A DNA stretch of 64,000 bases. Origin: Escherichia phage NHEP29. Below, in pieces: positions 60,828-61,928 of this stretch. The position numbers were made by a program, and so were the translations under genes. How positions within the stretch are numbered: position 1 is the first letter of the stretch; each line of letters starts with the position of its first letter. The notes beneath the pieces were generated by a model. It saw nothing but the letters and a program-made list of their open reading frames with translations. It had not been told where the DNA came from and made no database searches. The DNA lies in sequence record PQ511150.1. One strand, given 5' to 3'.

Positions 60828-61928
60828 TTACGCTGTGAAGATTTTATCCCACATCGCAACAACTGCATCTCGATTATACTTCTTCCATACTGCTTCAGCA
60901 CGTTTAACTCGAGCTTCGTATGTGTCAGTGAATTCTAATACAGCTTTTGTGTAAAGCGCAACTACTTCTTTCTTAGGAGTAGAGGAATCAATTTCTACAC
61001 GCACAGTATCTGGGTCGTATTCGAATGTCGCATGAGGATAATCCTTAAAAACTAACTGGATTACAGGGACACCTTTAGAGATGGCTTCAATAGAACTATT
61101 CTCTACCGTACCTGTGTCAGGACACGTATTAATAAGTGCTTTAGCTGTTTTAAGACGTTCCATGATTTCACCGTGTGGAGCATCAATAATAACAGGATAT
61201 TTAGCTGGTGGTGCCCATTTACTAGGACAGTATCCTACACCATTTTCGCCTAGTGCTTTAATCGCTTCAAGAGCAACATCAGTGCGACGCATCTTAGTGT
61301 CATAACGTTGAGCACTAATAATCAAATCAGTCGCCGGAAGAACTTCAGGTTTCTCATTCAAACAAATAACCGGATAATCTTCGGCTTCAAACAACGGATT
61401 TGCTCGCCAATAATCATAATCAATTTTGTCAGTCAGACCTGAAGTCATATAACAATATTTGCGTTCAAATTCACGGAAGGCTTTAGTAGGAGCATAACTC
61501 TTACCACCATTCTTATGAATTTGAATAGTCTGGTCCCAAATTTGAACAATGCCGCGAGATACCGGTTCAAATGGTGTTGCCATAAAATTCTTATGAACTT
61601 TAGAGAGGCCTGCGTCTTTAATTGCCTGAACGGTTAGTTTAGTCGGTTCCATAGTAACAACAAAATCATATTCATGGATGCCGGCTAGTTCAACAATCTT
61701 ACGAGCCATAGTATAACTCATACCTAGACTGAATTTAGTCAGATGACCAACAGGATGATGATTAACCTTCCAATCACCAAACGTGTCATTATCAAAGCCG
61801 ATATAATCAATATCAGCACCGATGGACACAAGATATTTCAACACATTTAAATGTACTGCTTCAAGGCCACCTTGTACACGATCAGGATTAAATGGGACTG
61901 CACGAGATGGGATAAACATAACTTTCAT
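60828..61928 (-). CDS. GT-B fold glycosyltransferase (GT4-like), candidate DNA-sugar transferase
   Basis: 366 aa; N-terminus MKVMFIPSRAV...GGLEAV typical of GT4 donor-binding fold; C-terminal VENSSIEAISKGVPVI resembles the conserved E-x7-E/G-x-P-V motif; occupies the T4 gene 60/mobA position. Confidence 0.55.
   Translation of the reverse strand: MKVMFIPSRAVPFNPDRVQGGLEAVHLNVLKYLVSIGADIDYIGFDNDTFGDWKVNHHPVGHLTKFSLGMSYTMARKIVELAGIHEYDFVVTMEPTKLTVQAIKDAGLSKVHKNFMATPFEPVSRGIVQIWDQTIQIHKNGGKSYAPTKAFREFERKYCYMTSGLTDKIDYDYWRANPLFEAEDYPVICLNEKPEVLPATDLIISAQRYDTKMRRTDVALEAIKALGENGVGYCPSKWAPPAKYPVIIDAPHGEIMERLKTAKALINTCPDTGTVENSSIEAISKGVPVIQLVFKDYPHATFEYDPDTVRVEIDSSTPKKEVVALYTKAVLEFTDTYEARVKRAEAVWKKYNRDAVVAMWDKIFTA

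Follow-up and report, generated by a model that had tools for sequence, protein, structure and literature searches.

In this work we analysed a stretch of 64,000 nucleotides from Escherichia phage NHEP29 (sequence record PQ511150.1; hereafter the window), and in it an open reading frame (ORF) of 366 amino acids between rIIA and gene 39. It is an orthologue, in the genus Mosigvirus, of RB69 gp3 (ORF003c) and of the phage HY126 glycosyltransferase, and encodes a soluble, GT4-like enzyme of GT-B fold. Its product is very probably a DNA-directed transferase that uses uridine diphosphate (UDP)-D-arabinofuranose (Araf) to add a second, beta-(1->3)-linked arabinose to alpha-arabinosyl-5-hydroxycytosine. 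None of this is new, as gene, locus, candidate function and three-dimensional structure can already be found in the literature and in the PDB; the practical gain is a better annotation for a gene that is mostly recorded as hypothetical.

Orthology with RB69 gp3

The window comes from an RB69-like phage of the genus Mosigvirus: over positions 52000-64000 it shares 99.2% nucleotide identity with Escherichia phage NHEP11, its closest relative, and 96-98% with many other Mosigvirus genomes. A tblastn search of the ORF product against 50,697 phage records (E ≤ 1e-5) matched 211 of them: 155 records of Escherichia and Shigella phages (Mosigvirus) at 95-99.7% identity, 55 Acinetobacter T4-like phages at about 43% identity with two places per record, and a single record labelled Tegunavirus. 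The Mosigvirus locus between rIIA.1 and gene 39 is conserved, and the legend of Figure 5 in Thomas et al. places RB69 ORF003c (366 aa) at the same locus (PMC6024577). With PHROG 8302 ('unknown function') the match of the ORF product is likewise full-length (1e-222, residues 1-366 of 366). Two PDB entries, both released on 2025-07-16, describe the 'phage HY126 glycosyltransferase' (9IQZ) and the same protein with UDP (9IR0). The HY126 chain (E 7.5e-250) differs from the ORF product by five residues, counted from the alignment as N56T, Y160H, G164A, G253S and S315F, none of which falls at a family-invariant position. RB69 gp3/ORF003c, the HY126 glycosyltransferase and bas46_0103 are practically the same protein as the ORF product (366 aa, 98-99% identity, same locus, Mosigvirus background); orthology is thus established, as is the UDP complex of a 98-99% identical protein.

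GenBank labels for this family are inconsistent. Most records, including that of NHEP11, have 'hypothetical protein', Bas46 (ChristianSchoenbein) has 'putative hmC-arabinosyltransferase', hmC being hydroxymethylcytosine, and some Acinetobacter phage records (e.g. Berthold 9001-11296) have 'putative DNA alpha-glucosyltransferase'. The last two labels are chemically outdated.

Fold, family and motifs

Pfam and NCBIfam scans of the ORF product gave nothing at E ≤ 1, and the Pfam GT4 models PF13439 (Glyco_transf_4) and PF00534 (Glycos_transf_1) were not passed. The family is very small: a family hidden Markov model (HMM) made from six members was searched against 1.84 billion cluster representatives and found 12 proteins at E ≤ 1e-3, 8 of them at E ≤ 1e-30. 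A word-index search for homologues recovered just 5 clusters. The two weakest HMM matches (P0015 and P0016) carry PF13439 and PF00534 domains, and hhalign aligned the family with one GT4-domain relative over 341 columns (98.2% probability, E 3.5e-14). At the level of sequence it is only this profile-profile comparison that suggests a link to GT4. The family profile reached no characterised GT4 chain significantly among PDB sequences (best E 1.3), and the motif statements below are therefore based on family invariants and on general knowledge of GT4 enzymes.

An AlphaFold model built from 14 sequences (predicted local distance difference test, pLDDT, 91.9), which replaced a run with 6 sequences (pLDDT 59.7), has two Rossmann-like domains with an interdomain cleft, the architecture that defines GT-B. 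In structural comparison the model scored 49.6 with the solved HY126 enzyme (9iqz; root-mean-square deviation 2.4 A), 20-25 with GT4-type enzymes (sucrose-phosphate synthase, BshA, PimB', WaaB, WaaG and PglA), 17.8 with T4 alpha-GT (1y6f) and 15.1 with T4 beta-GT (1c3j). The fold is therefore established, and the ORF product is a GT-B enzyme nearer to bacterial GT4 enzymes than to the T4 DNA glucosyltransferases. BLASTP against T4 a-gt and b-gt returned noise (E 7.1 and 3.0, respectively), and hhalign of the family against T4 a-gt gave 0.3% probability. These results agree with the initial annotation of this DNA, made from the sequence alone, which had described a GT-B/GT4-like glycosyltransferase unlike either T4 glucosyltransferase and had proposed a structural comparison with GT-B families.

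Across 11 family members the invariant residues include G20-G21-L22; E94, T118-P119 and R125; Q207-R208-x-D210 and R214; N267-T268-C269; G273-T274-x-E276 and E281-A282; G286-x-P288-V289; and H299-A-T-x-E303-x-D305-P306. We equate these with three motifs of GT4 enzymes: the glycine motif at the N terminus, the R/K pair that binds the diphosphate, and the Glu motif of the C-terminal domain. The A-x-x-x-G-x-P-V stretch that follows the Glu motif is retained.

The structural neighbours include lipopolysaccharide (LPS) and cell-wall enzymes (WaaG, WaaB, PimA/PimB', PglA and TarM), as would be expected if the ORF product glycosylated LPS or another glycan of the cell envelope, for example in host-surface remodelling, and had no role on DNA. 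However, these matches are at 8-15% identity and reflect a shared GT4-like fold, the family is tiny (the 12 cluster representatives above), and among sequenced phages it is limited to those that carry an arabinosylation gene cluster. Moreover, its Acinetobacter paralogues lie inside that cluster, and two of them, DLP3 gp76 and gp77, together modify DNA in vitro (PMC13326640). An envelope enzyme is therefore extremely improbable, and we rejected an LPS or cell-wall transferase because the family is confined to phages and, in those of Acinetobacter, sits among DNA-modification genes.

Proposed assignment to the second arabinosylation step

Thomas et al. (2018) detected arabinose in RB69 DNA and, using custom HMMs and HHpred, without biochemistry, named ORF003c as a likely arabinosyltransferase (PMC6024577). 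Lee et al. (2026) reported that mono- and di-arabinosylated 5-hydroxycytosine (5hoC) takes the place of cytosine in RB69 DNA, that the disaccharide is beta-D-Araf-(1->3)-alpha-D-Araf ether-linked to C5, and that gp48, a thymidylate-synthase homologue, makes 5-hydroxy-dCMP (5hodCMP); for gp46:47 they proposed the role of first (alpha) transferase and for gp3 (ORF003c) that of 'beta-arabinosyltransferase 2' (PMC13326640). The same article cites work on HY126 (He et al., 2026) for a flavin-dependent hydroxylase and for the UDP-D-arabinose enzymes AfhE and AfhF (PMC13326640). Mosigvirus NP contains mono- and di-arabinosyl cytidines in a 1:4 ratio (PMC13390438), and for Bas46 and Bas47 double arabinosylation has been described (PMC12923530), so that di-arabinosylation is established in RB69, NP and Bas46/47. 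Transfer of Araf from UDP-Araf to DNA is likewise established for the Acinetobacter homologues: DLP3 gp76 and gp77, when combined, add a third arabinose to RB69 DNA in vitro (PMC13326640). Deletion of an 'arabinosyltransferase Aat' is said to sensitise Bas46 to a plasmid-borne defence (PMC13216743).

The initial annotation had proposed a lineage-specific transferase in phage DNA sugar modification and had named RB69-type arabinosylation as a possibility, a core reading that holds. The modified base it assumed, hmC, has to be replaced by 5-hydroxycytosine with a C5 ether-linked sugar in this lineage (PMC13326640, PMC13390438). It had offered either a non-glucose sugar on hmC or a second glucosyltransferase of the T2/T6 type; the non-glucose sugar and the second-sugar role both survive, and the probable acceptor is the first arabinose and not the base, as proposed by Lee et al. 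(PMC13326640).

We propose the following pathway. A flavin-dependent thymidylate-synthase homologue would make 5-hydroxy-dCMP, which would replace dC in the phage DNA, and other phage enzymes would make UDP-D-arabinofuranose from ribulose-5-P; the genes for these steps would lie outside the window, between uvsX and gene 43. A gp46:47-type transferase would then place the first alpha-D-Araf on O5 of 5-hydroxycytosine, and the ORF product would add the second, beta-(1->3)-linked D-Araf onto that first sugar. The resulting di-arabinosylated base would account for most cytosines in Mosigvirus DNA and would shield it from nucleases. That the ORF product alone performs the second step, and with this linkage specificity, we infer.

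In NHEP11 the RB69-type cluster is complete, between uvsX and gene 43, and a ThyA homologue stands where RB69 has gp48; genes 47 and 55 have no a-gt between them, nor does a b-gt adjoin the ThyA homologue. Its transferase gene lies apart from the cluster, at a distance of about 21 kb. In the Acinetobacter phage Berthold the cluster has the order arabinose-5-P isomerase, bifunctional kinase/nucleotidyltransferase, phosphatase, ThyA homologue, a 311-aa protein, Tmk-like kinase and two tandem paralogues of the ORF product, Berthold_075 and Berthold_074 (43% and 40% identical to it over the full length). Direct comparison found no relation between the 311-aa protein (077) and the ORF product; 077 is 46% identical to NHEP11 CDS0006, the equivalent of RB69 gp46:47. 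The rest of the arabinosylation pathway is thus probably present in NHEP29 as well, judging from these relatives.

The 2018 assignment of an 'hmC-arabinosyltransferase', updated to 5hoC, would make the ORF product the first transferase, putting arabinose directly onto the modified cytosine. The distribution of the two families argues against it. The gp46:47 family (RB69 gp46:47, NHEP11 CDS0006) is a different family, whose gene adjoins that of the 5hodCMP synthase in all arabinosylating lineages, and it is the sole transferase in the mono-arabinosylated Shewanella phage Thanatos (Lee et al., 2026; PMC13326640). It was found in 348 phage records, from phages of Escherichia, Klebsiella, Serratia, Enterobacter, Proteus, Yersinia, Kosakonia, Providencia, Salmonella and Acinetobacter; about 137 of these records do not have the family of the ORF product. 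The copy number of the latter follows the number of extra sugars, with one copy in di-arabinosylated Mosigvirus and two in tri-arabinosylated Acinetobacter phages, and no single DLP3 enzyme was active on 5hoC DNA (PMC13326640). This pattern fits a universal first transferase of the gp46:47 type and an accessory, chain-extending transferase, and leaves a first-step role for the ORF product quite unlikely. In the records, proteins of the gp46:47 type go under 'RNA polymerase binding protein' in some cases and under 'cysteine desulfurase' in others.

Several points weigh against the assignment of the ORF product to the second step. In the canonical C-terminal motif of GT4 enzymes, E-x7-E, the two glutamates are eight residues apart; here the spacing is E276-x4-E281, and invariant G273 occupies the position of the first Glu, eight before E281. 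GT4 enzymes, as classed in CAZy, are retaining, and they are the nearest structural relatives of the ORF product. The two sugars of RB69 have opposite anomeric configurations and presumably derive from one UDP-D-Araf donor, so that, of the two GT-B transferases, one must be inverting and one retaining. The ORF product could be an inverting enzyme in a retaining-type clade, to which the E-x4-E spacing and the assigned beta linkage would point, or could depend for its activity on a hetero-complex formed with the first transferase; we regard these readings as rather unlikely. In addition, Lee et al. assayed the DLP3 enzymes and not RB69 gp3, which carries no experimental-confirmation flag in their Table 1, and DLP3 gp76 or gp77 alone was inactive in vitro (PMC13326640). 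Finally, tblastn of the 64-kb window found no genes for 5hodCMP synthase, UDP-Araf synthesis or a gp46:47-type transferase (all E > 0.01). The same search of the window found no homologue of T4 gene 42 (E > 0.01), and a T4-type agt or bgt elsewhere in it was rejected (best tblastn E 0.45).

The inactivity of single DLP3 paralogues, both of which were needed for tri-arabinosylation in vitro (PMC13326640), raises a further alternative, in which the ORF product is weak or inactive alone and works only as the partner of a gp46:47-type enzyme, as gp76 and gp77 need each other; the altered Glu spacing could be read in the same sense. Nevertheless, the family-invariant polar residues R208, R214, E276, E281, H299, E303 and D305 are all kept, the ratio of nonsynonymous to synonymous substitution rates (dN/dS) is low, and a near-identical protein was crystallised as a UDP complex. 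Since Mosigvirus has one copy of the family, the partner would also have to be an unrelated protein, and we hold such a dependence to be very unlikely. A first transferase, an obligate partner and an envelope enzyme are all weaker explanations than addition of the second arabinose.

Comparison with known systems

The T2/T6 beta-alpha-GT makes gentiobiosyl-hmC. It resembles the ORF product in that a second transferase lengthens the first sugar on a modified cytosine, and differs from it in sugar, donor and base. The gentiobiosyl product has been described (PMC13390438). No homology to this enzyme emerged from the tblastn search of phage records, in which the ORF matched only Mosigvirus-type, Acinetobacter and one Tegunavirus-labelled record, the T2/T6 sequence itself not having been aligned directly. 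T4 alpha-GT (1Y6F/1XV5) and beta-GT (1C3J), which have no sequence similarity to the ORF product and are structurally further from it than bacterial GT4 enzymes, glucosylate hmC directly, whereas the Mosigvirus lineage has 5-hydroxycytosine according to the literature (PMC13326640, PMC13390438).

The bacterial GT4 enzymes (sucrose-phosphate synthase 6KIH, BshA, PimA/PimB' and WaaG) share 8-15% identity with the ORF product, which stays below all Pfam and NCBIfam thresholds. Compared with them, it has an altered E-x7-E spacing, a proposed acceptor of glycosylated DNA and a proposed beta-linked product, where GT4 enzymes are retaining. DLP3 gp77 and gp76 (equivalents of Berthold_075 and _074) are members of the same family that extend arabinosyl-5hoC on DNA using UDP-Araf (PMC13326640). 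In DLP3 two copies stand in tandem within the cluster, the two being required together in vitro, and the base is tri-arabinosylated, whereas Mosigvirus has one unlinked copy and two sugars.

With arabinosylated 5-hydroxycytosine in it, Mosigvirus DNA is protected from many restriction enzymes and, as work cited in one report has it, from some CRISPR and glycosylase defences (PMC13216743). The number of sugars may tune that protection, and the transferase gene is probably responsible for the addition of the second one. This is relevant to the choice and engineering of therapeutic phages, to the sequencing of their DNA and to the enzymatic making of glycosylated DNA.

The gene and its surroundings

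The features discussed here are listed in Table 1. The position of the ORF given in the initial annotation is exact, with rIIA.1 directly downstream and rIIA after it, and T4 has, as stated there, gene 60 and mobA at this position (60, 60.1 and mobA). Pairwise dN/dS among five Mosigvirus orthologues is 0.04-0.13, which marks a functional gene.

Table 1. Coordinates of the transferase gene, its neighbours and other features of the window
Feature	Position	Strand	Size	Remarks
Transferase CDS, RB69 gp3/ORF003c-type GT-B, putative DNA beta-arabinofuranosyltransferase 2	60828..61928	-	366 aa	ATG to stop, stop codon included
Shine-Dalgarno-like AAGG	61936..61939	-		7 nt upstream of ATG at 61928; read from the sequence
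Hairpin AAGCTCC-TTCG-GGAGCTT with T-rich tail	61955..61972	-		Overlaps gene 39 stop codon; 27 nt before transferase start
Topoisomerase II large subunit, unsplit (upstream gene)	61971..63788	-	605 aa	BLASTP
rIIA.1 (downstream gene)	60535..60735	-	66 aa	Pfam PF24210 T4_RIIA1, 2.1e-30
Class I DAHP synthase	23520..24512	-	330 aa	Pfam PF00793, 5.2e-75; adjoins cd
cd (dCMP deaminase)	22939..23520	-		
denB-position ORF	56543..57163	-	206 aa	Length from first possible start
ORF overlapping the denB-position ORF	57036..57374	-		

The hairpin between the gene 39 stop codon and the transferase start is GC-rich and has TTCG as its loop; its role may be that of a terminator-like element or of an intercistronic stem-loop that stabilises mRNA. 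A scan for terminator-like sites found 1 site against 0.8 expected, which is background, so the hairpin is not significant by itself and is treated as descriptive only. A sigma-70 promoter scan was also at background (6 sites against 6.0 expected), and no promoter is therefore claimed.

By BLASTP, residues 1-474 of the 605-aa upstream protein match T4 gp39 (79% identity) and residues 473-605 match T4 gp60 residues 27-159 (88% identity); because one protein matches both, the topoisomerase II large subunit is unsplit. NHEP29 thus lacks the gene 60 split, the translational bypass and the mobA insertion of T4. In Escherichia phage AV115 (OR352945.1, 1-258), whose orthologue is the most divergent in Mosigvirus (95.4% amino-acid identity), the gene immediately upstream of that for the transferase encodes a homing endonuclease and is not gene 39; the junction between gene 39 and the transferase gene is thus a mobile-element insertion site in AV115, as in T4. 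Shigella phage JK45 (NC_054940.1, 1794-2204) has the full transferase gene and an exact 395-nt tandem duplicate of its 3' end, which is fused to the first rIIA.1 codons and annotated as a 136-aa protein. The duplicate stems either from an error in the assembly or from a duplication that took place very recently.

Elsewhere in the window, the DAHP synthase beside cd, labelled phospho-2-dehydro-3-deoxyheptonate aldolase in NHEP11, is an enzyme of the aromatic pathway (or one like KDO8P synthase) that would not be expected in a T4-like phage. It may be linked to the arabinose pathway, since PF00793 also covers arabinose-5-phosphate-using enzymes. The ORF at the denB position has no Pfam match; its NHEP11 counterpart is shorter (185 aa) and labelled 'DenB-like DNA endonuclease IV', and the GC content at this ORF (0.42) is above that of the neighbouring sequence.
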